From NCBI GenBank assembly GCA_963708025.1, contig CAVPSB010000035.1:10800-74799 (forward strand): DNA of 64,000 nucleotides. The letters run 5' to 3'. The notes below the pieces were generated by a model. The model ran no database searches, had not been told where the DNA came from, and saw only the letters and a list, made by a program, of their open reading frames with translations. This document shows positions 628 through 56,509 of this stretch, one piece after another. Each line of letters opens with the position of its first letter. The stretch's first letter is position 1. This DNA comes from an uncultured Candidatus Rokubacteria bacterium (GTDB taxonomy: Bacteria > Methylomirabilota > Methylomirabilia > Rokubacteriales > DASRDR01). A program made the translations under genes and the position numbers.

Positions 628-2592
628 GTGAGCGGGACGCCGTTCCCCCGGCTCTTCAGCCCGCTTCCGCTGGGCCCCCGGATCGCGCGGAACCGGATCG
701 TCAGCACGCCCCACACCACCGGGTTCGCCGTCGACGGCTTCCCCCGGGAGCGCTGGCTCGCCTACGAGCGCGAGAAGGCGCGCGGTGGGTGCGGGACGAT
801 CATGATGTTCGGCTCGGCCTCGGTCCACCCGAGCTCGCCCGTCGCCGCCGCCGGTGGGGTCGAGCTGTGGGACCCGGCGGTGGTGCCGCACCTGCGCCGT
901 ATGGCCGAGGCCGTCCACGCCGAGGGCGCCCTCTGCCTGGCCCAGGTCTCGCACTGGGGCCGGGGCGGGGTCGGGCCCTACGCCGACTGGCCGCTGCTGG
1001 CGCCGTCGGACGAGCCCGACGAGACGCACCACGGGATCCCGCGCGCTCTCTCGAAGGCCGAGATCCACGAGCTGGTCGACGCGTTCGGCCGCGCGGCCGC
1101 TCACGTCAAGCGCGGGCGGCTACGACGGCGTGGACCTCTCCTGCTGGGGCGGGCACCTCACCGAGCAGTTCCTCTCGCCGGTCAGCAACCGGCGGACGGA
1201 CGAGTACGGCGGCTCCCTCGACAACCGCATCCGGTTCTGCCTGGAGACGCTGGAGGCGGTGCGCGCCGCCGTCGGGCCCGACCTGATCGTCGGCGCGCGG
1301 CTGACCGGCGACCAGCTCGTGGAGGGCGGCCTGACCCTGGAAGACACCCAGGCCATCGCCGCCCGGCTGGCGGCCACCGGCCGGCTCGACTACGTCACGG
1401 TGAGCGGCGGCTCGACCGAGCAGTACCGCGCGCTCCCCTACGTCACCCCGACCTACTACGCGCCGCTCGGCCTCTACAACCGCTTCGCCGCCGCGGTGAA
1501 GGCGGTCGTGCAGGTCCCGGTCATCGTCGCCGGGCGGATCGTCCATCCCGCCCAGGCCGAGGAGGTGCTGGCCCAGGGCTGGGCGGACGCCGTCGCCATG
1601 ACCCGCTCGCTCATCGCCGACCCCGCGCTGCCCCGGAAGGCGAGGGACGGGCGGGTGGACGAGATCCGGATCTGCACCGGAGCCAGCGAGGCCTGCATCG
1701 GCCGGCGCATCCAGGGCAAGACGATCGCCTGCATCCAGAACCCGGCGATCGGCCGGGAGGCGGAGCTGGCCGACGTCCGCCCGGCCGACCGCGCGCGCCG
1801 GGTCGTGGTGGCCGGCGGCGGCGTCGCGGGGCTGGAGGCCGCCCGCCTGGCGGCGCGGCGCGGTCACCGGGTCGTCCTCTTCGAGGCGGCCCTCGAGCCG
1901 GGCGGCCAGCTCCGCGCGGTCTGGCGCTCGCCGGCGCGCCAGAGCTACCAGGAGGTCGTGCGCTGGCTCGTCGCCGAGGTCGGGCGGGCAGGGGTGGAGG
2001 TCCGGCTGGGGACCGAGGCGACGGCCGCGTCGGTCCTGGCCGAGCGGCCTGACGTCGTCGTGGTCGCCACCGGGGTCCGCCCTCGCGCGCTCGAGGTGCC
2101 CGTCGCGCCGGACGCCCACGTCGTGACCGCGGAGGACGTGCTGCTCGACCGCGTCGCGCCCGGGCCCCGGTGCCTGGTCGTGGACTACCACGGCCACATG
2201 CCGGGGCCGAGCGCCGCCGAATTCCTCGCCGACCGCGGGTGCCGGGTCGAGATCGCGAGCCGCTTCTTCACCGTCGGCGAGGACATCGACCCCCGGCTCA
2301 AGACCAGCGTGTACACGCGGCTCTACCAGAAGGGCGTGGTGCTGACGCCCCTGGCCGTGGTCCGGGAGATCGGCGCGGGCTGGGTCCGGCTGGCCAACAC
2401 CCTGACCGGCCAGGAGCGGGTCGTCGAGGTGGACACCGTGGTCACGGCCCTCGGCGGCCGGGCGGACGACGCCCTGGCGCGCGGCGCTCGACGGCCAGGG
2501 CCGTCGAGCTCCACGTGGTGGGCGACGCCCTGGCGCCGCGCACGATCCACGACGCCATCCTCACCGCCACCCGCGCCGCCCGGCGCTTCTGA
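628..2592 (+). pseudogene. Old-yellow-enzyme (FMN) plus FAD/NAD(P) domain oxidoreductase, 2,4-dienoyl-CoA reductase family; frame broken about 3 times
   Basis: GTG at 628 follows GAGGGA. The N-terminus (VSGTPFPRLFSPLPLGPRIARNRIVSTPH...) lies in ORF 406..2052. The core (GYDGVDLSCWGGHLTEQFLSPVSNRRTDEYGGSLDNR...VVVAGGGVAGLEAA) lies in ORF 854..2656. The end (VVGDALAPRTIHDAILTATRAARRF) lies in ORF 2170..2592. Frame changes are near 1112, 2487 and 2505. Confidence 0.8.
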
Positions 2593-2667
2593 CCCAGCGG
2601 GGCCGGGCATTGATGAGGGGTCGTGGTTCTTCCGCATAAAAGAGTACGACGAATGACGGAGGCGAAT

Positions 2668-2925
2668 ATGGCAACCAACGTCAAGATCACCAGCCGCCCT
2701 GCTGGCGTGATCCGGCATGCCGGTACTGCGATCCGCTCGGTCAGCCCTGGCGTGATCGCGAAAGCGCTCGGGGCCGAGAAGGCTGTATCCAGGGAGAACG
2801 TTCTCGGCGCTCCGATTAGTCTGCACGCATTGCGACGGGCGCTGGAGAGCCGGGTTCGCTCCACGGGCGGGCGGCCGGCTCTGGAAGGGGCAACGAAGAT
2901 CCAGAAGATTCCGCTGAGAGCCTGA
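2668..2925 (+). CDS. hypothetical small protein; possibly the N-terminal part of a frameshifted ribbon-helix-helix-like protein
   Basis: ATG at 2668 lies 5 nt after GGAGG, inside ORF 2623..2925. The region is less G+C-rich than its flanks. After the stop, the +1 frame reads EDWSRLEELAAQLSQEGVSATAGQVASVMVHSQLQL (2924..3106). Confidence 0.3.
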   Translation: MATNVKITSRPAGVIRHAGTAIRSVSPGVIAKALGAEKAVSRENVLGAPISLHALRRALESRVRSTGGRPALEGATKIQKIPLRA

Positions 2926-3139
2926 AGACTGGTCTCGACTCGAAGAGTTGGCCGCCCAACTCTCTCAGGAAGGCGTCTCGGCTACAGCTGGACAGGTCGC
3001 GAGCGTAATGGTCCACAGCCAGTTGCAGCTCGTCGCACCATCAGCCACGCGCCAAGGGAGAACCTCTCGACGCCCGGCGACGCGGCGGGTAACCGGACAT
3101 CGATGATCACTCGTAGCCCAGGGGCTGCCGCTAGCCACA

Positions 3140-3297
3140 TTGATCTCACTGCATTCGGATACATCGTTCGCGACGACGCCCTGGCCCGCGCGCTCGACGG
3201 GCAGGGCCTCGAGATCGACGTCGTGGGCGACGCCCTGGCGCCGCGCACGATCCACGACGCCATCCTCACCGCCACCCGCGCCGCCCGGCGCATCTGA
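3140..3297 (+). pseudogene. stub B: orphan C-terminal ~50 codons of a flavin reductase paralogue
   Basis: Reads IDLTAFGYIVRDDALARALDGQGLEIDVVGDALAPRTIHDAILTATRAARRI with no upstream body. The last 63 nt (3235..3297) match 2530..2592 at 62/63. Confidence 0.75.
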
Positions 3298-3451
3298 CCC
3301 GGCGGGGCGCGCCACGATCCAGTGGCCGACGGCGAGGGTGCCGATGTGACGCGAGAAGCTCGCGCCCGATCCTCGCGGCAGACCCGGCCGCCAGGCGTGA
3401 CCGAGTGCGCGGCCCGCCAAGGGGTCGCGGGGACGGCAACCGGCGCCGGGC

Positions 3452-4384
3452 TCAGCGGGCCGTGGGGGGCGCCGCCCGGTTGACCACGGTCATGGCGGTC
3501 GCGATCATGGCGCCGATGTCGGCGACGTTGGCGGGCACGATCAGGCTGTTGGTGGTCCGGGCCAGCTCCCCGAACTTGGTGATGTACTGCTCGGCCACCC
3601 GGAGCTGCACCGCCTCGACGCCCCCGGGCACCTGGATCGACTCCGCGACCCGGCGGATGCCCTCCGCGGTGGCGGCGGCGATGGAGAGGATGGCCGAGGC
3701 CGCGCCCTCCGCCTCGTTCATCTCCTGCTGACGCTTCGCCTCGGAGGCCTTGATGACCTGCTGCTTCTGGCCCTCGGCCACGTTGACGGCGGCGTCCCGC
3801 TCGCCCTCGGAGGTCAGGATGACGGCCCGCTTCTCCCGCTCCGCCCGCATCTGCTTCTCCATGGCGGCCAGCACGTCCTTGGGCGGGGTGATGTTCTTGA
3901 TCTCGTAGCGGAGCACCTTGATCCCCCACGGCTCCGATGCCTTGTCCAGCTCGCTGACGACCTGGCTGTTGATTTGGGTGCGCTCCTCGAAGGTGCGGTC
4001 CAGGTCGATCTTGCCGACCTCGCTGCGCAGGGTGGTCTGGGCGAGCTGGCTGATGCCGAACATGTAGTCGGCCACGCCGTAGGAGGCACGCTCCGGGTTC
4101 ATCACCTTGAGGTAGAGGACGCCGTCGACGCCGACCTGGACGTTGTCCCGCGTGATGCAGATCTGCTCGGGGATGTCGACGGCCGTCTCCTTCAGGGAGT
4201 GGCGGTACCGGATGGCGTCGAGGAAGGGGATCAGCAGGTGAAAGCCCGCGTGGAGCGTCGCCCGGTACTTGCCGAGCCGCTCCACGACGTAGGCGCTCTG
4301 CTGCGGTACCACCCTCGCCGTCTTCGCGATGACGATGATGACCAGCACGGCGAGCACCACGAAGACGACCAGCGCTTCCGTCAT
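3452..4384 (-). CDS. SPFH/band-7 (stomatin/prohibitin-like) membrane protein
   Basis: 310 aa with an N-terminal TM helix, then VVPQQSAYVVERLGKY...GVDGVLYLKV...TLRSEVGKIDLDRTFEER...VLRYEIKNITPP and a coiled-coil tail. Confidence 0.95.
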   Translation of the reverse strand: MTEALVVFVVLAVLVIIVIAKTARVVPQQSAYVVERLGKYRATLHAGFHLLIPFLDAIRYRHSLKETAVDIPEQICITRDNVQVGVDGVLYLKVMNPERASYGVADYMFGISQLAQTTLRSEVGKIDLDRTFEERTQINSQVVSELDKASEPWGIKVLRYEIKNITPPKDVLAAMEKQMRAEREKRAVILTSEGERDAAVNVAEGQKQQVIKASEAKRQQEMNEAEGAASAILSIAAATAEGIRRVAESIQVPGGVEAVQLRVAEQYITKFGELARTTNSLIVPANVADIGAMIATAMTVVNRAAPPTAR

Positions 4385-4400
4385 GCGCCCCTCCTCGGGA

Positions 4401-4832
4401 CTACTCGGCGACGACGCCGAGGGTGAGCCCGTCCACGCGCGTCACGCGGCAGCGCTGCCCGCGAGCGAGGGTGGTCGAGCCGTCGTTGTGCGCGGTCCAC
4501 GTCGTGCCACGCAGCTCCACCTTGCCGACCGCGCCCGGCGCCAGATCCTCGATCGGGACGGCGATTTCCCCGACGACGCCGTCGATCACGGGCGCCGACC
4601 CTGGCCCCCGCGTTCGCGCGAGGAGCGGCCCGCGAAGCACCACGAGGGCCAGCACGGACACGACCGAGAACAGCAGCCACTCCATCCACGCCGGGCCGGC
4701 CAGGCCCAGGCCGGCCAGAATGCCCACGACGAGGGCCCCCGTCCCGAAGAAGAGGAAGAAGAACCCCATCGGCGTGAACAGCTCGAGCCCCACCAGCAGG
4801 AAGCCCAGGAGGATCCAGAGCCACCAGGTCAT
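4401..4832 (-). CDS. NfeD-family membrane protein, partner of the SPFH protein
   Basis: Internal ATG at 4832 (MTWWLWILLGFLLVGLELFTP...). TM helices are followed by a C-terminal OB-like GKVELRGTTWTAHN. It lies immediately upstream of the SPFH gene on the same strand. Confidence 0.9.
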   Translation of the reverse strand: MTWWLWILLGFLLVGLELFTPMGFFFLFFGTGALVVGILAGLGLAGPAWMEWLLFSVVSVLALVVLRGPLLARTRGPGSAPVIDGVVGEIAVPIEDLAPGAVGKVELRGTTWTAHNDGSTTLARGQRCRVTRVDGLTLGVVAE

Positions 4833-5016
4833 GCGCGCGCGAGCGTCGGCAGCCGGTCGATGGCGGCGCGAACGGCGCCCGTCACGCCCGGCATTCGAAG
4901 AGGAGTGCGTCGGCCACGGCGCGACGAGTCTAGCGGCCGGGCGTCCGGACGTCAACTGCTCGCATCCGGAGGCGCCTGCTCCGGAGGCGCCACCGGCGAG
5001 CGCCGGGCTCGTGCCG

Positions 5017-5230
5017 TTACCCGCCCCGTCGGCCCGGCGGGAAGATCACGAACGTCGTGCTTTCGCCGGGTCGCGTCTGGTAGCGGATCTGGCCCCCGTG
5101 GGTCTCGATGATCCGCTGGCAGATCGAGAGGCAATTGGCCGAACGCCAGTTGACCGGGAGCCTCTTCAGGCAGATCATCCGGCGCGTCGAGCGGCTCGCT
5201 GGCATCCGACGTGATCGAGAGACCCACCCG
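5017..5230 (-). pseudogene. fragment of a histidine-kinase HATPase_c domain (C-terminal remnant)
   Basis: ORF 5017..5304 ends ...ANCLSICQRIIETHGGQIRYQTRPGESTTFVIFPP, resembling the G2 box to the C-terminus of sensor kinases. There is no HisKA or sensor part upstream. Confidence 0.4.
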
Positions 5231-5429
5231 GGAGCGGAGGCGATGAGGAGCAGGGGTCGAAGCAGCGGAGGTGTCTCTGAACAGGGCCGTCGGATTGACC
5301 ACACTCACAAGCGCGAGGCTGCGGACGGTCCATGCGTCGCGAGCATGACTTTCCTCGACCTACCGGAAAGGATGAACGAGCTGGGCGACTGGGTGATCCG
5401 CCCGTTCAAACGCACGAGGGAGGGGAGAC

Positions 5430-49085: not shown

Positions 49086-49514
49086 GCGCGACGTCCTCCT
49101 GGCCGGCCCCGACGCGCGGCGAAAGGGCAAGGCGAGAGCGAGGGTCGAAGATCCACGCCGTTGTGGCCTTCTTTGTACACCGCCGCGACCCGGGGTCGCA
49201 AGGCGCCCCTCGGAAAGCGGGACGGCTCAGGCCTCGGCGCCGGCACGCATCGCGCCGGCGGCGATCAGCGCGTCGATCTCCCGGGGCGAGGGTTCGGGCG
49301 CTGCGCCGCGCAGCGCGCGCCACCTCTGCCGCTCGGCCCCGCCTCGGTTAGCCTACACCGGAGGGGACATCCAAACCTTCGCATCGGCTCACGAATGGAG
49401 TCCCGGTGCGATGACACCTTCTCGGGTTCATCGTCGCCAGGCTTCGCCCCCAAGCATCGAAGTGGGTTCCCAGGGGCACCCCGTCAGAGGACGTCTTGCT
49501 TGGCCGAGCTCCTG

Positions 49515-49532
49515 GGACCAAGGTCCAATAGC
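49515..49532 (+). repeat. 18-nt motif GGACCAAGGTCCAATAGC, copy 1
   Basis: Identical to 53447..53464. It is followed after 18 nt by CTAGTGT. Confidence 0.8.
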
Positions 49533-49651
49533 GGCCCTCCCGAGCGGTTGCTAGTGTGGCCGTGTACCGGCCGGTCCTGCGATCAAACGCCACCTGCATC
49601 GTGGGGAAACTCGCGCCGGCCCCGAAACTCCGAGCCCGACAGGAGACCGCC

Positions 49652-49750
49652 ATGGCCGAGAAGAATCGCCGGAAGACCGCCCGGATGCGCGCCGCCCTCA
49701 AGAAGAAGCAGAAGAACCGCAAGGCTCGCGTCGCCGGCCGATCCCGCTGA
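49652..49750 (+). CDS. very basic 32-aa protein, hypothetical
   Basis: AGGAGA lies 6 nt before the ATG. Reads MAEKNRRKTARMRAALKKKQKNRKARVAGRSR. Confidence 0.4.
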   Translation: MAEKNRRKTARMRAALKKKQKNRKARVAGRSR

Positions 49751-49789
49751 GCGAGCCGCTGGTATCGACGATCAGACCTTTACGGGGAT

Positions 49790-49960
49790 GTAAGAACCTC
49801 TACCGCGCAACTGGACCTGGGCGGCCCTCAGCGGCGGGCGTTCGCGATCGACGTGTTGGCATGCCCCCGCTGTGGCGGCCCGCTGCGCGTGCCCCGTCCG
49901 ACATCCCGATGACAATGTCTCGGATCTTCTCCGACGCGGTGAAGTGCGTCTCGACGTCCT
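49790..49960 (+). mobile_element. scar of an IS91-family (Y2 rolling-circle) transposase C-terminus
   Basis: Reads ...RRAFAIDVLACPRCGGPLRV, then (frameshifted) RHPDDNVSDLLRRGEV. This resembles the conserved ...VF.IDVL.CP.CGG.M..IA.I..P.V...IL.HLGL tail. No transposase body is present. Confidence 0.45.
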
Positions 49961-50147
49961 ACCGAATGCGGAGGTCGCGCAACGAGCCCAGGACACCGAA
50001 TGTCTGCAACAGCCAGATGACGACCACGATGACGACCACGACATTGAGGATCGTCTTGATCTTCGGATCCATCGGCACGTAGTTGTTGATCAGCCAGAGC
50101 AGAACCCCGACAACCACCAGCGTGATGATGAGTCCGATCAGGCTCAT
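49959..50147 (-). CDS. Thivi_2564-family small membrane protein
   Basis: 62 aa. Reads MSLIGLIITLVVVGVLLWLINNYVPMDPKIKTILNVVVVIVVVIWLLQTFGVLG. Confidence 0.8.
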   Translation of the reverse strand: MSLIGLIITLVVVGVLLWLINNYVPMDPKIKTILNVVVVIVVVIWLLQTFGVLGSLRDLRIR

Positions 50148-50225
50148 GTCGGCTCCTCTCTCATTACTGCACGACGAAGCTCGTGGTTCCGCGTGACAGC
50201 CGGTCGCCCACGGAGACGGTCACTC

Positions 50226-50447
50226 TTACGACGTTCGAGCTCCGACGATGACCAACACCACGCCGCCGGCAAGTGCCAAGACGCCGACGATCGGAGGCAG
50301 GGGGATGCTCTTTTCCTTGTCGACCGAGGCCTTGAACGGTCCAAGGTCGATGACCTTCTCGCGAGTCGTGTACGTGATGCCCTGGTAGGCCAGGGCGAGC
50401 ACGCCGAGAACGATCAGGGCGACACCGACGAGAGTCACGGGTTTCAC
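50226..50447 (-). CDS. small two-TM membrane protein
   Basis: 73 aa. Reads MKPVTLVGVALIVLGVLALAYQGITYTTREKVIDLGPFKASVDKEKSIPLPPIVGVLALAGGVVLVIVG. Confidence 0.75.
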   Translation of the reverse strand: MKPVTLVGVALIVLGVLALAYQGITYTTREKVIDLGPFKASVDKEKSIPLPPIVGVLALAGGVVLVIVGARTS

Positions 50448-50479
50448 GGCGCTCTCCTCCCTCTCGTGGTCATGCTTTT

Positions 50480-50761
50480 CTAGGTGCTGGTGCGGGGCGA
50501 ATCGCTTCCTGCCCTGCCCGGAGCGCCTCGCTCGACATGCTCCTTCGTGTCCTGCAAGAATTCGTCAGCCCGACGCAGGGCATCTCCGCCGCGGTCCAGC
50601 ACCTTCCCAGCCGTCTCCTCTACCGCCCGGACGCTCTCCGCTGCCCTCGTGCGCACCCCGCGCGTCTTCTCCTCCACGTACTCCTCCATCTCCCGTCCCC
50701 ACAGCCACACGACGGCTGCCCCCATGATCGCTCCCAGGACAAAGGCCCCACTGGTTCGCAT
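50480..50761 (-). CDS. YtxH-domain protein (TM helix plus coiled coil)
   Basis: ATG at 50761 follows GAGGAGG. Reads MRTSGAFVLGAIMGAAVVWLWGREMEEYVEEKTRGVRTRAAESVRAVEE. Confidence 0.7.
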   Translation of the reverse strand: MRTSGAFVLGAIMGAAVVWLWGREMEEYVEEKTRGVRTRAAESVRAVEETAGKVLDRGGDALRRADEFLQDTKEHVERGAPGRAGSDSPRTST

Positions 50762-50945
50762 CGCAGTCCTCCTCGTTTGCGATTTCAAGTTATCCCGTCG
50801 CGAACTCGGTCTGGCGTCACTTGATCCGCATGTCATTCTTGACGGACCTCACGCCCGCGACCCGCGTGCGACACGTTCTCGTCGTAAGAGCGCGACCTCG
50901 TGGGGCACCGACGTGAGCCCCACCGCACGCCTCACCGCGGCGCCG

Positions 50946-51095
50946 TCAGACGGATCGGCGGCCGGCAATGAACTGGAACAGGACGACAATAACCGCGATG
51001 ACCAGCAGTAGATGGACCAACCCGCCGGCCGTGTACGAAGTGACCAAGCCGAGCGCCCACAGCACCAGAAGAATCACAGCAATCGTCCACAGCAT
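50946..51095 (-). CDS. lmo0937-family small membrane protein
   Basis: 49 aa. AAGGAGGG precedes the ATG. Reads MLWTIAVILLVLWALGLVTSYTAGGLVHLLLVIAVIVVLFQFIAGRRSV. Confidence 0.8.
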   Translation of the reverse strand: MLWTIAVILLVLWALGLVTSYTAGGLVHLLLVIAVIVVLFQFIAGRRSV

Positions 51096-51168
51096 GGCCC
51101 CCTCCTTCTCTGTCCTCGGGTCTGTTGCAGGGCCCCCGACCGCCTGCGGAGTCAAAGTTCTCCTCTGA

Positions 51169-51183
51169 GCAACAGAGGTGCCA
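51169..51183 (-). promoter_or_regulatory. sigma-54 (RpoN) -24/-12 promoter match facing the lmo0937-family gene
   Basis: The minus strand reads CC-TGGCAC-CTCTG-TTGC-T, with all ten fixed positions of TGGCAC-N5-TTGC matched. The -12 element lies about 74 nt upstream of the ATG at 51095. Confidence 0.65.
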
Positions 51184-51527
51184 GGAAACAACATGCTAAG
51201 GATTCTGGAATCTTGGCCGAGGAACTCTGTCCTCGAGTGGGGCAGTCTCGCCTCTCTGGGGCATGGGTGCCCCACCACCCCGCGAAGCACGATGCTGGGC
51301 ACACGGACAGTGGGCTGTGCCGCCGTGCGATCCGGGTGAGCGAAATGCGACCTCCCTCTGCGGACCCCCCAGCCTGGGACCGCACTCGTTGAATGCCAGG
51401 CCATCCTCGTCGAGTACGGCCGGAATACGGCAACGGGCACGGATGTCCCACTCCGGAAGAGTCCTCCTTCGACGGGGCAGTGGACGGCTTCGAGCGGAAG
51501 CTCCCGCCTCACATTGAAAGTTCGGTT

Positions 51528-51542
51528 TGGCACCGCGCTTGC
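51528..51542 (+). promoter_or_regulatory. sigma-54 (RpoN) -24/-12 promoter match facing the cupin gene
   Basis: The plus strand reads T-TGGCAC-CGCGC-TTGC-G, about 100 nt upstream of the ATG at 51644. Confidence 0.65.
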
Positions 51543-51643
51543 GATCCGATCGCTATCGACTGAACGGCGGGTCCGATGGCAACTCTTCACCCCTGGGCAC
51601 GTCGAGGTTGGCTTCCGAGCCGAAAGACGATGAGGGGACGACA

Positions 51644-52036
51644 ATGACAGGCTACGTTGGACCGATCGAAAGCCAGACCCTGAACAACACCTACTTCCGC
51701 CGGGTATTGTTCACCGGCAAGCACGCCCAGCTCGTGGTCATGTGCCTGCAGCCGGGCGAAGAGATCGGTAGGGAGGTGCACACGAACGTCGATCAATTCT
51801 TTCGCATCGAGCAGGGTGAGGCGAAGCTTGTCTTCAACGTGAAGGAGGAACATGTCGTGCGCGATGGGGACGCAATTCTGGTCCCCGCGGGCACCTACCA
51901 TAACGTCATCAATGTGTCGAAGACGAAGCCCTTGATGCTATACACGATCTATTCTCCGCCGAACCACCCCGATGGAGCGGTGCACAAGACCAAGAATGAG
52001 GCAGCGGCGGCCGAAGCGGCGGAGCATCATTCCTAG
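51644..52036 (+). CDS. cupin-domain protein
   Basis: 130 aa. Contains LQPGEEIGREVHTNVDQFFRIEQGEAKLVFNVKEEHVVRDGDAILVPAGTYHNVIN. Confidence 0.85.
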   Translation: MTGYVGPIESQTLNNTYFRRVLFTGKHAQLVVMCLQPGEEIGREVHTNVDQFFRIEQGEAKLVFNVKEEHVVRDGDAILVPAGTYHNVINVSKTKPLMLYTIYSPPNHPDGAVHKTKNEAAAAEAAEHHS

Positions 52037-52059
52037 TCACAAGATGAAAGGGGACTTCG

Positions 52060-52212
52060 ATGCTACTACTGATTATTGTTCTGCTCCTGCTGTTCGGCGG
52101 AGGCGGCGGCTATTACGGGTATTCCAGATGGGGGAGCCGCGGGGGCCTGGGGGTAGTCGGGACGGTCCTGCTCATCTTGGTGGTCTTGTACTTGGTCGGC
52201 GCGTTGCGTTGA
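52060..52212 (+). CDS. 50-aa Gly-rich small membrane protein (DUF3309-like)
   Basis: Not in the ORF track because it is under 60 aa. AAAGGGGA precedes the ATG. Reads MLLLIIVLLLLFGGGGGYYGYSRWGSRGGLGVVGTVLLILVVLYLVGALR. Confidence 0.65.
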   Translation: MLLLIIVLLLLFGGGGGYYGYSRWGSRGGLGVVGTVLLILVVLYLVGALR

Positions 52213-52520
52213 CCTCGGAAAATAGCGGGTGCGGCTCCTCCGGGATTCCCGGGACAGCCGTCACCCCGGGCGCCAGAGTGCTCGAGCGCCCGCGCGATGG
52301 ACCTCGCGCACGACCGGGTGACGCGTTGAACTCGCCCAGGGCCGAAACCCGGCCGACGTGCGTCAGATCCTGCCGGAGTCTTGCCTCGGAGTTCCCCTGC
52401 CTCCAGGACAATAGCGATTCCGATCCGGCTAGTCCCGCCGAACACGGACGTCCTCGTTCCGTTGCCACGACCCCTCCGACCGCTGGGCGCCGCTTGACGC
52501 CGTCGGCTCCATGAACTCAG

Positions 52521-52658
52521 CTACCGGTGAAGCAGGCCGAGCGCCCCGACCACGATCAAATACGCTGCCACGATGTAGCTCAGCAACCTGGGGATAACCA
52601 AGATCAAAATGCCAGCGATTAGGGAAATCAACGGCTGGAGCGGGAGGCCCACCACCAT
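52521..52658 (-). CDS. DUF3096-like small membrane protein
   Basis: 45 aa, not in the ORF track. GGAGG lies 6 nt before the ATG. Reads MVVGLPLQPLISLIAGILILVIPRLLSYIVAAYLIVVGALGLLHR. Confidence 0.65.
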   Translation of the reverse strand: MVVGLPLQPLISLIAGILILVIPRLLSYIVAAYLIVVGALGLLHR

Positions 52659-52721
52659 GTCAACCTCCGTTCGGTGATCCGTCGTTCATAGCTCTCCGGA
52701 GCAAGCCGGCCCGCGCCGCCC

Positions 52722-52913
52722 CTACTTCTTGAGTTCGTCTACGGCCTTGTCGATCCGCTCGCCAGCCTTCTCGATTGGTCCCTTCCCGCTCAACTTGTCC
52801 AGAGCCTTGTCGAGCTTCTCACCCACCTTCTCGGCTGGCCCTTTCTCGCACCCGAGCAAGACACCACTCCCCAGCAACCCGAGGAGGACCATGCCCACGA
52901 CGAACTGGTTCAT
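52722..52913 (-). CDS. small lipoprotein with repeated Kx(L/I)DKA(L/V)D motifs
   Basis: ATG at 52913 follows AGGAGA. Reads MNQFVVGMVLLGLLGSGVLLGC (lipobox), then EKGPAEKVGEKLDKALDKLSGKGPIEKAGERIDKAVDELKK. Confidence 0.7.
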   Translation of the reverse strand: MNQFVVGMVLLGLLGSGVLLGCEKGPAEKVGEKLDKALDKLSGKGPIEKAGERIDKAVDELKK

Positions 52914-53051
52914 CACGTTTCTCCTGTTTCTCACAGCCGCAAGCGTTTGAGGACCTCGCTGGGATGTCTCCTGGTCCAGCGACGAGCTCGACCGGCGAGT
53001 CTCTCAGGGAAACCGATCGCCGGCCGCTCAGTAGCGGGTAGGCTCCCGATC

Positions 53052-53126
53052 CTAACGGAACCCGAGGTATCCCAGGACGACGAGCACGACGACCACAACT
53101 CCGATGATGTAGAAGATGTTGTTCAT
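53052..53126 (-). CDS. 24-aa hydrophobic peptide
   Basis: GAGGAAG precedes the ATG. Reads MNNIFYIIGVVVVVLVVLGYLGFR. Not in the ORF track. Confidence 0.4.
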   Translation of the reverse strand: MNNIFYIIGVVVVVLVVLGYLGFR

Positions 53127-53446
53127 GTTCTTCCTCGTCTCGTTCTGCTGTTCTGTTGATGACGAGTCGGAGCCAGAGATGGCACCGGCCCATGGCAGCA
53201 TTCCCCGAGCCGTCGCTCAGCCACTTCCGTCATCGCTTGCTCCTCCGTCCGCGCCGCTCCGAGCCCACACTTAGTTAACAACACCGCGGGTCCGCCGCCC
53301 ATTGGCCTTTGGTCCAATGAGGCCAAGCCCACCCAATGACGCAGGGCGTCACCCGGGTCTCAGCTGGCGAGACGAACGGCGCTGGCCTCGACGAGCCGAC
53401 GCTCGACCGTCCGGGCCCGAGCCGTGATGGCGGCACGGCGTCGGTT

Positions 53447-53464
53447 GGACCAAGGTCCAATAGC
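53447..53464 (+). repeat. 18-nt motif GGACCAAGGTCCAATAGC, copy 2
   Basis: Identical to 49515..49532. It is followed after 19 nt by CTAGAGT. Confidence 0.8.
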
Positions 53465-53745
53465 TGGGACGGGACCGTGTCGACTAGAGTCAGGACCATG
53501 AAGTCTGGAAGCCTCTCCCCACGCGCGCTCGAGGGGCCGAGCGTGGGTAATCGAATCGGGCAACGGGACCGGTTGACTGGCTTCGTCGGCGGCGACCTGC
53601 TGGCTTTCCATGTGCCGCCGAACTCCTGTTCAGTGTCCACGCGGGCCGGCGAGCGGCCTCGGGTGGGGCACCTGCCAGGAGAATGCGCCATCTCACTGGT
53701 CCCCGCGAATCGGGACACCGCCAGAACTCAACGGAGGGGAAGCCG

Positions 53746-53901
53746 ATGCTTACAACGATTCTCATTGTGGTCCTGATCCTCGCGCTCCTCGGGGCGCTGC
53801 CGACGTGGGGACACAGTCGGAGCTGGGGCTATGGCCCGAGTGGAGGCGTCGGCCTCCTTCTGTTGATCCTCGTCGTCCTGTTCATGACTGGCCGCATATG
53901 A
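53746..53901 (+). CDS. DUF3309-family small membrane protein
   Basis: GGAGGGGA precedes the ATG at 53746. Reads MLTTILIVVLILALLGALPTWGHSRSWGYGPSGGVGLLLLILVVLFMTGRI. Confidence 0.8.
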   Translation: MLTTILIVVLILALLGALPTWGHSRSWGYGPSGGVGLLLLILVVLFMTGRI

Positions 53902-54118
53902 GGGCAGCCGCGAGTCACAGGCTGATCCGCCGGCAACCGACGGACCAGCCTGAGCACGTCATCGAGGGCGGCGGCGTCCTGCCAGACCAGCCGCGGCCCA
54001 GCATCCGGGAGCTGGCCGGTTTCCTCGGCAATTGATCCGAATTCCGTCGCGCGCATCATCGAGGCTAACAGCCTGAGGGTCCACCTGGTTCGATGACCGA
54101 GGGGCGAGGACTCTGCGC

Positions 54119-56509
54119 GTGGGGCAGGAACCGAGGATCCCGATGACTCTCCTCGCCGAAGCCGGCGCGGCTTCCCAGGCGGCCCACGCCGAACCCGCGA
54201 GCGGAGCCGACGTGGCTCGCGAGCGGCTCCGGGCCGTCGTCGCTCGGCTGTGCGACGCCCGCTCCTCTGCGGCCGCGTGGCTCCGCGTCGCCCGGGGCCG
54301 CGTGGCCACGAGACTGACGGCCACGTCGTGGCGTCGCGCGGCCTGCTTCGCGGCGCCGCCGCTGGTTCTGCTCCTCCTGCCCGCGAGCCTGGCCTACCAC
54401 GTCTTCTTCGACCGCAGCGGGCTGCCCGACATCGAGCCCTTCATCCGCTTCAAGCCCCCGACGATCGGCGAGGTCTACGACGCCCGAGGCACGGTGCTCA
54501 TCACGCTGGCGCGGGAATACCGGCGCGTGGTGTCCTACGACGAGATCCCGACCGTCCTTCGGCACGCGATCCTCTCGGCCGAGGACAAGAACTTCTTCAC
54601 CCACTCCGGCGTCGACTACCGCGTGCTGCCCCGGGTGCTGCAGAAAGGCGCGGTGCGCTCCCTGGCCGGGTGGGGACCAGGCGAAGCGGGGTTCCGGCTA
54701 CTGTTCCGCCACGGGGGATCGACGCTCACGCAGCAGCTCGTCCGCGGCTACTTCCTCCACAACTTGACCAGCCGCGAGGGCGCCGACGTGCTGGTGCACC
54801 GCGGTCTGACGCCGCGACTCCTCACCACGGCCCTGGGTGTCCCCGCCACCAACAAGCTCCTGCGGAAGCTGGAGGAGGTCCGGCTGGCCCTCTGGCTCGA
54901 GGCGGAGATGCGGCGGCGCTACGGCTCGTCGGAGCGCGCCAAGCGCGAGATCTTCGCACGCTACGCGAGCTTCATCTACCTGGGCAACGGCCGATACGGC
55001 TTCGCCACGGGCAGCGAGTACTACTTCGGCAAGCCGCTGTCGAGCTACGGGCCGGAGGATGCGGGGAAGGCGGCGCTGCTGGCCGCGATCATGAAGTCGC
55101 CCCGGGACTACGCCCCCGTCCCCGGAGACCCGAGGCCGCTGCGCCGCCGCAACCAGATCCTGGCTCTGATGGCGCGCAACGGGCACATCCCCGAGGACCT
55201 GGCGAAGCGTGGCCAGGCCGAACCGATCCGTGTCGCAGCGCGCAGCCCGGTGAAGACCCACGCCCCCGCGGCGATCGAGCACGTCTTCCACGAGCTGAAG
55301 CGCCACGGCGGCGAGCGCTTCGGGGCCGAGGACTTGGTACACGGGCGGATCTCGGTCCGCTCCACGGTGGACGAGCGGGTCCAGGCTATCGTCAACGAGG
55401 CCTTGGAGACCGGCCTCGCCCTCTACGAGCGGCGCCACCCGGAGGCGAAGGGACTGATCCAGGGCTCGGTGGTGGTGTTGCGCAACGCCGACGGGGCGAT
55501 CCTGGCCGAGGCCGGCGGCCGGCAGGTCTACCAGGACCGTCACACCCGTTACTCCGACTACAACCGCGTCACCGGCTCGCGGCGCCAGCCGGGGTCGGCG
55601 TTCAAGCCGTTGCTCTACCTGGCGGCGTTCCGCCAGGGCCTGGACCTCGACACCACGGTGCCCGACGAGCCCATCGGCGTTCCCCTGGGCGCCAACCGCG
55701 GCGTGAAGTTCATCGCCAACTACGACAACCGGTTCAAGGGCCCGATGCCCCTCCGCCAGGCGCTGGCCGAGTCGCGCAACGCGGTGGCCGTCTGGATCGC
55801 CCGGGAGATCGGCGTGGACAAGGTGATCCGGACGGCCCGGGAGCTGGGGATCCGCACGCCGCTTCAGCCCTACGTCAGCACGGCGCTGGGGGCGTCCGAA
55901 GTCGGGCTCCTCGAGCTGGCGGGCGCCTACCGGGCGATCGCGTCGGGGGTCCTGGCCGAGCCCCACGTCATCGAGCGCGTGCACGACGCCGCCGGCGAAG
56001 TCCTCTACGAGGCGCCGCGACGCGTCCGGGAGATCGGGTCCGCGGATCTGCGCCTGATCCAGGAGGGGCTGCGGGGCGTGATCCGCCTCCCGAGCGGCAC
56101 CGCCCACGCCCTCGACGGGCGCGACTTCCCGATCCCGGTGATGGGGAAGACCGGCACCACCAGCGACTTCCGGGACGCGCTCTTTGTGGGCTCGACCTAC
56201 GGCCGGACGGGGATCACGGTGGCGGTGCGGATCGGCTTCGACGACAACCGGGAGCTGGGCGACAAGGAGACCGGTGGGCGCGCCGCGCTCCCGATCTTCC
56301 GCGAGATCATGCTCCGGGTCTACCGCGACGAGCTGGTGGGGCCGGTGCCGGAGTTCCCCCCGGCGATCGAGGACGGGATCGAAGAGTACCTCGCGACGCG
56401 GGCCGCGCTGGAGACGGGCCACGAGGAGCCTCCGCAGCCCGCCCTCGACGACGGGCTCATCGTCCCGCCTCCCACCGCCCCGCCGGTGACGGTCTCCGAC
56501 TCCCGCTGA
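54119..56509 (+). CDS. class A penicillin-binding protein (transglycosylase plus transpeptidase, PBP1A family)
   Basis: GT51 motifs RHAILSAEDKNFFTHSGVD and GGSTLTQQL. Transpeptidase motifs SAFKP, ESRN and KTGTT. The start could be the ATG at 54143. Confidence 0.9.
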   Translation: MGQEPRIPMTLLAEAGAASQAAHAEPASGADVARERLRAVVARLCDARSSAAAWLRVARGRVATRLTATSWRRAACFAAPPLVLLLLPASLAYHVFFDRSGLPDIEPFIRFKPPTIGEVYDARGTVLITLAREYRRVVSYDEIPTVLRHAILSAEDKNFFTHSGVDYRVLPRVLQKGAVRSLAGWGPGEAGFRLLFRHGGSTLTQQLVRGYFLHNLTSREGADVLVHRGLTPRLLTTALGVPATNKLLRKLEEVRLALWLEAEMRRRYGSSERAKREIFARYASFIYLGNGRYGFATGSEYYFGKPLSSYGPEDAGKAALLAAIMKSPRDYAPVPGDPRPLRRRNQILALMARNGHIPEDLAKRGQAEPIRVAARSPVKTHAPAAIEHVFHELKRHGGERFGAEDLVHGRISVRSTVDERVQAIVNEALETGLALYERRHPEAKGLIQGSVVVLRNADGAILAEAGGRQVYQDRHTRYSDYNRVTGSRRQPGSAFKPLLYLAAFRQGLDLDTTVPDEPIGVPLGANRGVKFIANYDNRFKGPMPLRQALAESRNAVAVWIAREIGVDKVIRTARELGIRTPLQPYVSTALGASEVGLLELAGAYRAIASGVLAEPHVIERVHDAAGEVLYEAPRRVREIGSADLRLIQEGLRGVIRLPSGTAHALDGRDFPIPVMGKTGTTSDFRDALFVGSTYGRTGITVAVRIGFDDNRELGDKETGGRAALPIFREIMLRVYRDELVGPVPEFPPAIEDGIEEYLATRAALETGHEEPPQPALDDGLIVPPPTAPPVTVSDSR

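Follow-up and report, generated by a model that had tools for sequence, protein, structure and literature searches.

Results

Genes and promoter-like sites at the locus

The present analysis concerns an intergenic region in a stretch of DNA from an uncultured Candidatus Rokubacteria bacterium (GenBank assembly GCA_963708025.1, contig CAVPSB010000035.1, positions 10,800 to 74,799 of the forward strand); this whole stretch of 64,000 nucleotides (nt) is called the window below, and all coordinates refer to it. The window has a G+C content of 71% and contains many genes for ABC transporters and amino acid metabolism. For one of its products, resembling argininosuccinate lyase, matches in unnamed soil metagenomes reach 97% identity, and the closest match with a name, at 70%, is from Candidatus Rokuibacteriota. 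Two divergent groups of genes for small proteins, one headed by an lmo0937/DUF5670 gene and the other by a cupin gene, are separated by a region that carries, near each of its ends, an outward-facing match to the −24/−12 consensus of sigma-54 promoters. We argue here, with a probability of about 0.8, that these matches are two independent enhancer-dependent sigma-54 promoters that would drive both operons in opposite directions from a 345-bp intergenic region. The genes (protein lengths in amino acids, aa; TM, transmembrane helix), the predicted promoters and the predicted 5' untranslated regions (UTRs) are as follows.

50946-51095, minus strand: lmo0937/DUF5670 membrane protein, 49 aa, first gene of the minus operon (PF18919, E=1.7e-16; NF033488, E=8e-18)
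50480-50761, minus strand: 93-aa protein with an N-terminal TM, putative second gene of the minus operon ('YtxH' label unconfirmed)
50226-50447, minus strand: protein with two TM (2TM), 73 aa, putative third gene of the minus operon (synteny in L170 and L171)
49959-50147, minus strand: THIVI_2564 membrane protein, 62 aa, putative last gene of the minus operon (NCBIfam NF041949, E=2.4e-22; synteny in L171)
51644-52036, plus strand: Cupin_2 protein, 130 aa, first gene of the plus operon (Pfam, E=4.5e-16)
52060-52212, plus strand: DUF3309 small membrane protein, 50 aa, second gene of the plus operon, 23 nt after the cupin gene (PF11752, E=5e-8)
51169-51183, minus strand: predicted sigma-54 −24/−12 promoter of the lmo0937/DUF5670 operon, exact consensus, predicted start at about 51157
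51528-51542, plus strand: predicted sigma-54 −24/−12 promoter of the cupin-DUF3309 operon, exact consensus, predicted start at about 51554
51096-51157, minus strand: predicted 5' UTR of lmo0937/DUF5670, about 62 nt, deduced from the promoter position
51554-51643, plus strand: predicted 5' UTR of the cupin gene, about 90 nt, with a possible conserved helix between an anti-Shine-Dalgarno and the Shine-Dalgarno sequence

On the minus strand, positions 51183 to 51169 read TGGCACCTCTGTTGC (TGGCAC-CTCTG-TTGC) and, on the plus strand, positions 51528 to 51542 read TGGCACCGCGCTTGC (TGGCAC-CGCGC-TTGC), as given in an earlier annotation of this DNA (hereafter, the initial annotation). These are the only two matches to TGGCAC-N5-TTGC with all 10 specified positions exact on both strands of the window, an exact core match being equivalent to the maximum score at the core positions. 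The mean number of exact matches expected by chance is 0.06, compared with the value of about 0.1 that had been estimated initially, and none of 100 dinucleotide-preserving shuffles contained two or more. In both sites, the GG and GC doublets are spaced by exactly 10 bp. The T residues of the two −24 elements are 345 bp apart, and each site points to its nearest gene, both of which had likewise been claimed: the minus-strand site ends 73 nt before the ATG of lmo0937/DUF5670 at 51095, and the plus-strand site ends 101 nt before the ATG of the Cupin_2 gene at 51644. In organisms that possess sigma-54, well-matching sites located 0-200 nt before a start codon are very likely to be genuine (Francke et al. 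2011, PMC3162934); both sites lie within about 200 nt of the start codon, in the same orientation as the gene. The predicted starts were obtained by taking the C of the GC doublet as −12.

With respect to the gene products, the initial annotation had proposed lmo0937, YtxH, Thivi_2564, cupin and DUF3309-like families. The lmo0937-family and cupin labels hold up against Pfam and NCBIfam, and so do the Thivi_2564 and DUF3309-like labels. The YtxH label was not confirmed, with no match to Pfam or NCBIfam at E<=0.01, and the 93-aa protein is called YtxH-like below. In several related loci (designated by L numbers; L082, L165/166, L170 and L171), the gene after DUF5670 on that strand encodes an orthologue of this protein, the identities being 59-91% and the orthologue with 59% identity (L083) having no DUF5670 gene next to it. 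The order lmo0937-(BON)-YtxH-like-2TM-THIVI_2564, all on one strand, recurs in L082, L165/166, L170 and L171, and from this conserved arrangement we infer that the three downstream genes belong to the lmo0937 transcript. Similarly, the cupin-DUF3309 pair is conserved in L006 and L081-L084, often with a CsbD gene next, and is probably co-transcribed. In relatives, a 103-aa BON-domain gene stands between lmo0937 and the YtxH-like gene, in the place where the window has only a 185-nt gap (50762-50945) without notable structure (z=0.2), which suggests that the window has lost the BON gene.

Conservation of the two promoters in related loci

On the lmo0937 side, the motif is kept in about 20 loci, including a diverged lineage in which the spacer and the flanks have changed and the GG and GC doublets have not. 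Identical or nearly identical motifs occur 44-86 nt before the DUF5670 ATG in L081/82, L165-170 and L182-192. The form TGGCA(C/A)C(T/C)C(T/C)GTTGC is found in L165-170 and L190-192, and the most diverged lineage (L182-L189) has TGGCAC-TTCCA-TTGC within surrounding DNA that is largely different. In two soil contigs from JGI with cupins that are about 91% identical (L081 and L082), both promoters are present back to back, with a shorter spacer between them. The JGI soil datasets 3300082054 and 3300081724 contain a locus nearly identical to that of the window. In other loci, lmo0937 has different divergent neighbours (Peptidase_M50/CBS, CsbD or an AI-2E transporter) and the same promoter. Those lmo0937 homologues that come with taxonomic names are labelled Rokubacteria or Methylomirabilota. 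The sigma-54 sites that precede lmo0937 in three loci of Acidobacteriota (L017, L043 and L059) were set aside as uninformative, the gene being located inside BON operons.

On the cupin side, we scanned the 300 nt upstream of 155 cupin orthologues. Sigma-54-like sites with at most one mismatch were found only in the closest relatives of the window, and these fall into two clades, with 7 loci in the window-like clade and 9 in the second. Clade A (the window, L006 from Deferrimicrobiaceae, L081/82, L083, L084 and L087) has TGGCAC-N5-(T/A/G)TGC at 39-126 nt before the ATG. Clade B (L001-L004 and L085-L093) has (T/G)GG(T/C)A(T/C)-N5-TTGC at about 186 nt before the ATG; here the GG doublet, TTGC and the 10-bp spacing are invariant, and the other positions vary. 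The named records of clade B are mostly Methylomirabilota, L001 and L003 being labelled otherwise. Among the clade A loci, the genes upstream of the cupin differ, and alignable sequence begins about 110 nt before the −24 element. No such site precedes the cupin, itself highly conserved, in most of the Chloroflexota and archaeal loci, and therefore the motif is not a by-product of the coding sequence.

These observations bear on the most trivial explanation, namely, that the two matches are functionless coincidences in G+C-rich intergenic DNA. Some weight is lent to it by the lack of any excess of weaker sites, given that 33 sites with at most two mismatches were found in the window against 44.8 expected, so that the signal resides in the two exact sites alone. 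The low expectation for exact matches and the shuffles already argue in the opposite direction, and both sites are conserved at orthologous positions in many loci, where they vary in concert with the enhancer candidate described below. We regard chance as extremely improbable and, on the strength of the conservation, as effectively refuted.

Two leader sequences downstream of the promoters deserve mention in their own right. Downstream of the sigma-54-like promoter of clade B (L001-L004, L085, L086, L089, L091 and L093) comes a leader of about 175 nt, which is highly conserved and contains a 49-aa upstream open reading frame (ORF; MSVRALVAGDDVDLRDTWGHF...) overlapping the cupin ATG; by eye, the predicted peptide resembles the N-terminus of a receiver domain. 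The leader has an in-frame 27-nt deletion in one locus and a 1-nt indel in others. The cupin leader of the window (51554-51643) is conserved; in the predicted consensus fold, the Shine-Dalgarno region is paired with CTCTTC (about 51585-51590), and, among four sequences compared, 4 of the 27 predicted pairs show compensatory changes, so that the fold could provide translational control.

A palindrome at a fixed distance from each promoter

The initial annotation had suggested a search for conserved inverted repeats between 51200 and 51500. Such a repeat, GGGGCA-N4-TGCCCC, is present at both promoters and is kept in relatives. This palindrome, a candidate upstream activator site (UAS), and the other conserved elements of the region are listed below, with distances to the −24 T and approximate positions relative to the predicted starts.

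51258-51273: enhancer candidate UAS-A, perfect palindrome GGGGCA-TGGG-TGCCCC, centre 82.5 nt upstream of the −24 T of the minus-strand promoter (about −108)
51235-51252, minus strand: second, degenerate site GGCGAGAC-TGCCCCACTC, 19 nt promoter-proximal of UAS-A (about −89)
51200-51218: middle element GGATTC-TG-GAATCTTGGCC of the minus-side module, about −52, column identity 0.78
51434-51449: enhancer candidate UAS-B, CGGGCA-CGGA-TGTCCC (CGGGCACGGATGTCCC), centre 86.5 nt upstream of the −24 T of the plus-strand promoter (about −112)
51450-51469, plus strand: conserved block ACTCCGGAAGAGTCCTCCTT directly after UAS-B, identity 0.66
51487-51501: palindrome GCTTC-GAGCG-GAAGC, about −60 of the cupin promoter, identity 0.82

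To place the palindrome in context, GGGGCA-N4-TGCCCC with at most one mismatch was counted in the window and 192 related loci (1.40 Mb in total). In this set, 25 of 25 copies adjoin a correctly oriented sigma-54 site (at most one mismatch), on the correct side and at 63.5-85.5 nt, a count that overstates the independent support because the related sequences are not fully independent and represent about 7-8 lineages and three gene contexts. The distance from the centre of the palindrome to the −24 T is 82.5 nt in 19 copies and 81.5, 83.5 or 85.5 nt in others; one further copy, at 63.5 nt, corresponds to the second site in L170. For comparison, the background density of sigma-54 sites with at most one mismatch is 3.8e-5 per nt per strand. 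At the positions orthologous to UAS-B, the relatives have GGGGCACGGATGCCCC (L083), AGGGCACGGATGCCCC (L006) and GGGGCGCGGATGCCCC (L087), at 82.5-85.5 nt.

The pattern of conservation follows the same elements. Column identity amounts to 0.82-0.95 in the palindromes and promoters, compared to 0.42-0.60 between the elements and 0.15-0.35 further upstream; for UAS-A, the values are 0.95 vs 0.35 further upstream, and for UAS-B, 0.82 vs 0.15. The second minus-side site reaches 0.92 identity in modules of the DUF5670 type, and its TGCCCCACTC half-site is common to the cupin-side module. In the GCTTC-N5-GAAGC palindrome, the arms are kept and the spacer varies (GCTTCATGCGGAAGC in L006). With centres at about −108 and −112, the two palindromes lie within the range of about 80-150 bp upstream that is characteristic of enhancers. 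Thus, the initial reading of both sites as sigma-54 promoters is supported by the conservation of the motif before orthologous genes together with a palindrome at a fixed distance, and GGGGCA-N4-TGCCCC is put forward as a candidate enhancer motif that is apparently new.

The elements situated between the palindromes and the promoters (51200-51218, 51450-51469 and 51487-51501) are conserved as well. The first of these could be a bending site or the site of a second regulator, and the GCTTC-N5-GAAGC palindrome is a candidate for the same roles. Their presence is compatible with a different division of labour, in which the promoters are real, but the palindromes bind another regulator, such as a repressor or a co-regulator (for example, a REC+GerE response regulator of the kind described below), and the activator acts from the elements at about −52 and −60 or from solution. 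Indeed, some enhancer-binding proteins have no DNA-binding domain (group 5; PMC7175178), and no activator was identified whose specificity would tie it to the palindrome. It is the palindrome, however, that is the best-conserved upstream element, at 81.5-86.5 nt from the −24 element whatever the lineage or gene context, and that is common to both promoters, whereas the middle elements differ between the two. Moreover, paired helix-turn-helix domains bound to one or more upstream sites are the standard enhancer arrangement (PMC7175178). On balance, we consider the alternative arrangement unlikely and treat the palindromes as the putative activator sites.

A second palindrome, TTGGACC-AA-GGTCCAAT, is present in 3 copies (49512-49529, 53301-53318 and 53444-53461), two of which share an identical 18-mer; these copies are confined to the island of small genes described below, and there are 0 copies in 181 related loci. 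One copy lies upstream of an ORF for a very basic 32-aa product (49653-49750, plus strand), and the others are located between a gene for a 49-aa protein (53201, minus strand) and a second DUF3309 gene (53743, plus strand). This palindrome may be the operator of another regulator.

Protein partners and the weight of the evidence

The initial annotation had stated that no enhancer-binding protein is encoded in the window. Six-frame scans of the window for GAFTGA, ESELFGH, Walker-A and RpoN-box motifs gave no match, and Pfam detected 0 matches to Sigma54_activat (PF00158) in 38 of the longer ORFs of the window, which encode transporters and metabolic enzymes instead; hence, the statement withstands both kinds of search. 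In the related loci, only four loose, out-of-context matches of the GAFTGA type were found, and no Sigma54_activat domain is present in the gene tables of the 10-kb flanks around the relatives. We take the Methylomirabilota/Rokubacteria phylum to consist of diderm bacteria that contain lipopolysaccharide (LPS). In LPS-containing diderms, sigma-54 is nearly universal (Francke et al. 2011, PMC3162934).

Several points weigh against the interpretation that the two sites are enhancer-dependent sigma-54 promoters, in addition to the limited independence of the related sequences. The 64-kb window and about 1.34 Mb of sequence from related loci showed neither rpoN nor a gene for an enhancer-binding protein, and so both protein partners are assumed. 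The UAS-B of the window itself is degenerate, with 2 mismatches to the palindrome. There is no match to the IHF consensus (WATCAANNNNTTR) with at most one mismatch between the enhancers and the promoters. A named Rokubacteria metagenome-assembled genome (MAG; L171) and L172-181 have lmo0937 orthologues without the module, so that the link is specific to certain lineages. Finally, the start sites are predictions from the sequence.

We also considered the possibility that the composite element has nothing to do with sigma-54 and serves another sigma factor or DNA-binding protein, or else belongs to a transcribed leader or a small RNA with its start further upstream. In favour of this, rpoN was not seen, conservation across the 110 nt that precede the cupin promoter is fairly high throughout rather than confined to the motifs, and the cupin leader is conserved and may fold. 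Nevertheless, the GG and GC doublets are invariant and exactly 10 bp apart, whereas the spacer and positions −21, −15 and −14 vary across clades, which is the pattern of sigma-54; beyond the palindrome, on its upstream side, conservation comes to an abrupt end, and the genes next upstream vary from locus to locus, both of which speak against a longer transcript. With no Rfam match even at E<=1 and no consensus of the EcfG or SigB type, such an explanation seems quite improbable to us, and the sigma-54 interpretation is retained.

Candidate elements of other kinds were examined and discarded. For an RNA element, there was no Rfam match at the gathering score either, and the lmo0937 leader folds worse than its shuffles (z=+2.8). 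A hidden small gene between the promoters was rejected given that the ORFs in question (for example, 51152-51451, minus strand) are not conserved in L081 and L006; the 'GHPCP' peptide shared by the intergenic ORFs is the translated palindrome, and the ORFs that cross the block at 51450-51469 are not conserved. A sigma-70 consensus was found upstream of neither gene, the single match in 49500-54200 being located elsewhere (50532-50561, plus strand). The SigB type (GTTT-N12-16-GGGWA) has 0 matches in the whole window, and the EcfG type (GGAAC-N15-18-CGTT) has 0 in 49.5-54 kb and 3 in the window, all elsewhere.

Discussion

A model of the locus

Under the model that we favour, which builds on the standard mechanism of enhancer-dependent sigma-54 activation (PMC7175178), sigma-54 RNA polymerase would bind each −24/−12 element and form a closed complex. 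An AAA+ enhancer-binding protein, encoded elsewhere in the genome, would bind GGGGCA-N4-TGCCCC as dimers about 108-112 bp upstream of the starts, using the perfect site at 51258-51273 and the degenerate site 19 bp closer at the lmo0937 promoter, and the one site at 51434-51449 at the cupin promoter. The activator would then reach the closed complex by DNA looping, possibly aided by the conserved elements at about −52 and −60, and its hydrolysis of ATP would open the promoter. The predicted outputs are lmo0937/DUF5670 and the YtxH-like, 2TM and THIVI_2564 proteins on the minus strand (49959-51095), and the cupin and DUF3309 proteins on the plus strand (51644-52212). Because the targets are small proteins of the membrane and stress type, the regulon most likely answers an envelope or general stress signal.

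Separate modules and a possible regulon

The back-to-back layout might seem to imply a bidirectional enhancer shared by the two operons. The distribution of the modules suggests otherwise. A single contig of 995 kb (ERZ25039490 contig_1126) carries both the cupin module (L083) and the lmo0937 module (L170) at a distance of about 30 kb from each other, and therefore they appear to be separate members of one regulon; in the window and in L081, the two palindromes are spaced by 176 bp and 99 bp, respectively. We interpret the layout in the window as an incidental juxtaposition of two members of a regulon.

A broader proposal is that, in the Methylomirabilota/Rokubacteria branch and neighbouring soil lineages, small proteins of the stress type form one sigma-54 regulon under a single dedicated activator that binds GGGGCA-N4-TGCCCC about 83 bp from the −24 element. 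The members would be lmo0937/DUF5670-BON-YtxH-like-2TM-THIVI_2564, cupin-DUF3309-CsbD and a NarL-type response regulator. We offer this proposal tentatively, as one possibility to which we assign clearly less than even odds. If it were true, an enhancer-dependent sigma factor would take the role of SigB, RpoS or EcfG in these bacteria; the stress cassettes appear to be mobile between phyla, and each would gain a host-specific promoter module after transfer.

Several observations in the related loci touch on the possible extent of such a regulon. In L089 (3925-4800) and L091, a similar module, with GAGGCACCCATGCCGC at 82.5 nt from a perfect TGGCACCCAGGTTGC, precedes the gene for a response regulator of the REC+GerE (NarL/FixJ) type, which lies a short way beyond the cupin gene on its downstream side; this regulator is a possible third member of the regulon or a downstream regulatory tier. 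In L170 (1-2600; ERZ25039490 contig_1126), genes for a KaiC-like ATPase and a GAF-HisKA-HATPase-REC hybrid kinase are located beside a divergent CsbD/lmo0937 pair with the module; both are candidates for the signalling input, neither being a sigma-54 activator. In a Thermoanaerobaculia MAG (L009), the region 700-5400 contains several good sigma-54-like sites near the cupin, including a back-to-back pair (5014-5028, minus strand, and 5306-5320, plus strand), a perfect site at 3218-3232 before a gene for a 65-aa protein with two TM, and a site at 988-1002 before a gene for a 167-aa protein with a Fis-type HTH_8 as its sole domain. Sigma-54 control of small stress genes may extend to Acidobacteriota.

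The genomic setting of the two operons has features of its own. They belong to an island (49800-54000) of about 10 small membrane and stress genes with a G+C content of 0.57-0.67, compared to 0.70-0.77 in the flanks, which fits an acquired island. No tRNA gene is present in the window. Outside the two operons, the small genes of the island, DUF3096 and the second DUF3309 among them, lack a sigma-54 site. MAG proteins from Chloroflexota, Acidobacteriota, Nitrospirota, Gemmatimonadota, Desulfobacterota and several DPANN archaea share 68-91% identity with the cupin, and homologues with about 50% identity are encoded on 300 plasmids, mostly of Firmicutes; this distribution suggests wide horizontal transfer. 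The solved structure closest to it, 2OA2 (BH2720; E=1.7e-32), was deposited as 'BH2720 protein', with no functional name.

Significance and comparison with known systems

For an uncultured and abundant soil lineage, the findings provide a first testable cis-regulatory handle, consisting of a promoter class, an enhancer motif and at least 3 target operons. With the composite motif, complete genomes can be scanned for the members of the regulon and for the activator, which in turn could suggest the stress signal. Furthermore, lmo0937/DUF5670, DUF3309, THIVI_2564 and a widely transferred small cupin, all with no known function, become linked to one co-regulated response, which narrows the hypotheses about what they do. 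The initial annotation knew of no established sigma-54 link for these families; full-text literature searches agree, having found none for the families or for the phylum.

Divergent pairs of sigma-54 promoters with intergenic enhancers are familiar from zraP/zraSR (ZraR) and hyc/hyp (FhlA) of Escherichia coli, where one of the two operons contains the activator gene or has it as a neighbour; the product of zraP is a small envelope-stress protein. The locus analysed here resembles these systems in that sigma-54 promoters are placed back to back, with candidate activator sites in the shared intergenic region. Unlike in ZraP/ZraSR, no activator gene is found in either operon, a distinct enhancer candidate lies about 83 bp from each promoter, and the modules are separate in relatives.

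The closest functional analogue appears to be the PspF-dependent pspA/pspG pair of E. coli, sigma-54 promoters that serve small membrane-stress proteins, with two UAS at pspA and one at pspG (PMC3709507). As in Psp, one activator would serve dispersed promoters, and the two sites at lmo0937 and one at the cupin parallel the two and one of pspA and pspG. In contrast to Psp, the window ORFs that were scanned gave no PspA_IM30 or PspF/Sigma54_activat match, the enhancer candidate has another sequence, there is no IHF-like site, and the predicted targets are lmo0937/DUF5670, cupin, DUF3309 and THIVI_2564 rather than Psp proteins.

With regard to the kinds of targets, namely, lmo0937, CsbD, BON and small proteins of the YtxH type, the locus is reminiscent of the general stress regulons of SigB (Firmicutes), RpoS and EcfG. 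In Listeria, lmo0937 is among the transcripts that are reduced in sigB-family deletion mutants (PMC7690807), and it is down-regulated by a SigB inhibitor (PMC3225968). The promoter class proposed here is enhancer-dependent, of the −24/−12 type, unlike that of the SigB and EcfG regulons.

A precedent for assigning stress operons to sigma-54 through conserved modules of a promoter and a palindrome comes from the sigma-54 regulome of Desulfovibrio vulgaris, in which activators were assigned to operons of the 'general stress response', 'envelope stress response' and 'phage shock response' (Kazakov et al. 2015, PMC4641369). That regulome belongs to another organism, and a term search of the main text of the article found no cupin, CsbD, BON domain or small membrane families. 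What is new here is the candidate for an enhancer motif, with a fixed geometry, and the placing of uncharacterised small-protein families from an uncultured lineage in a putative sigma-54 regulon. Given that the combination of sigma-54 and an enhancer is textbook material, the advance would be a new regulon rather than a new principle.

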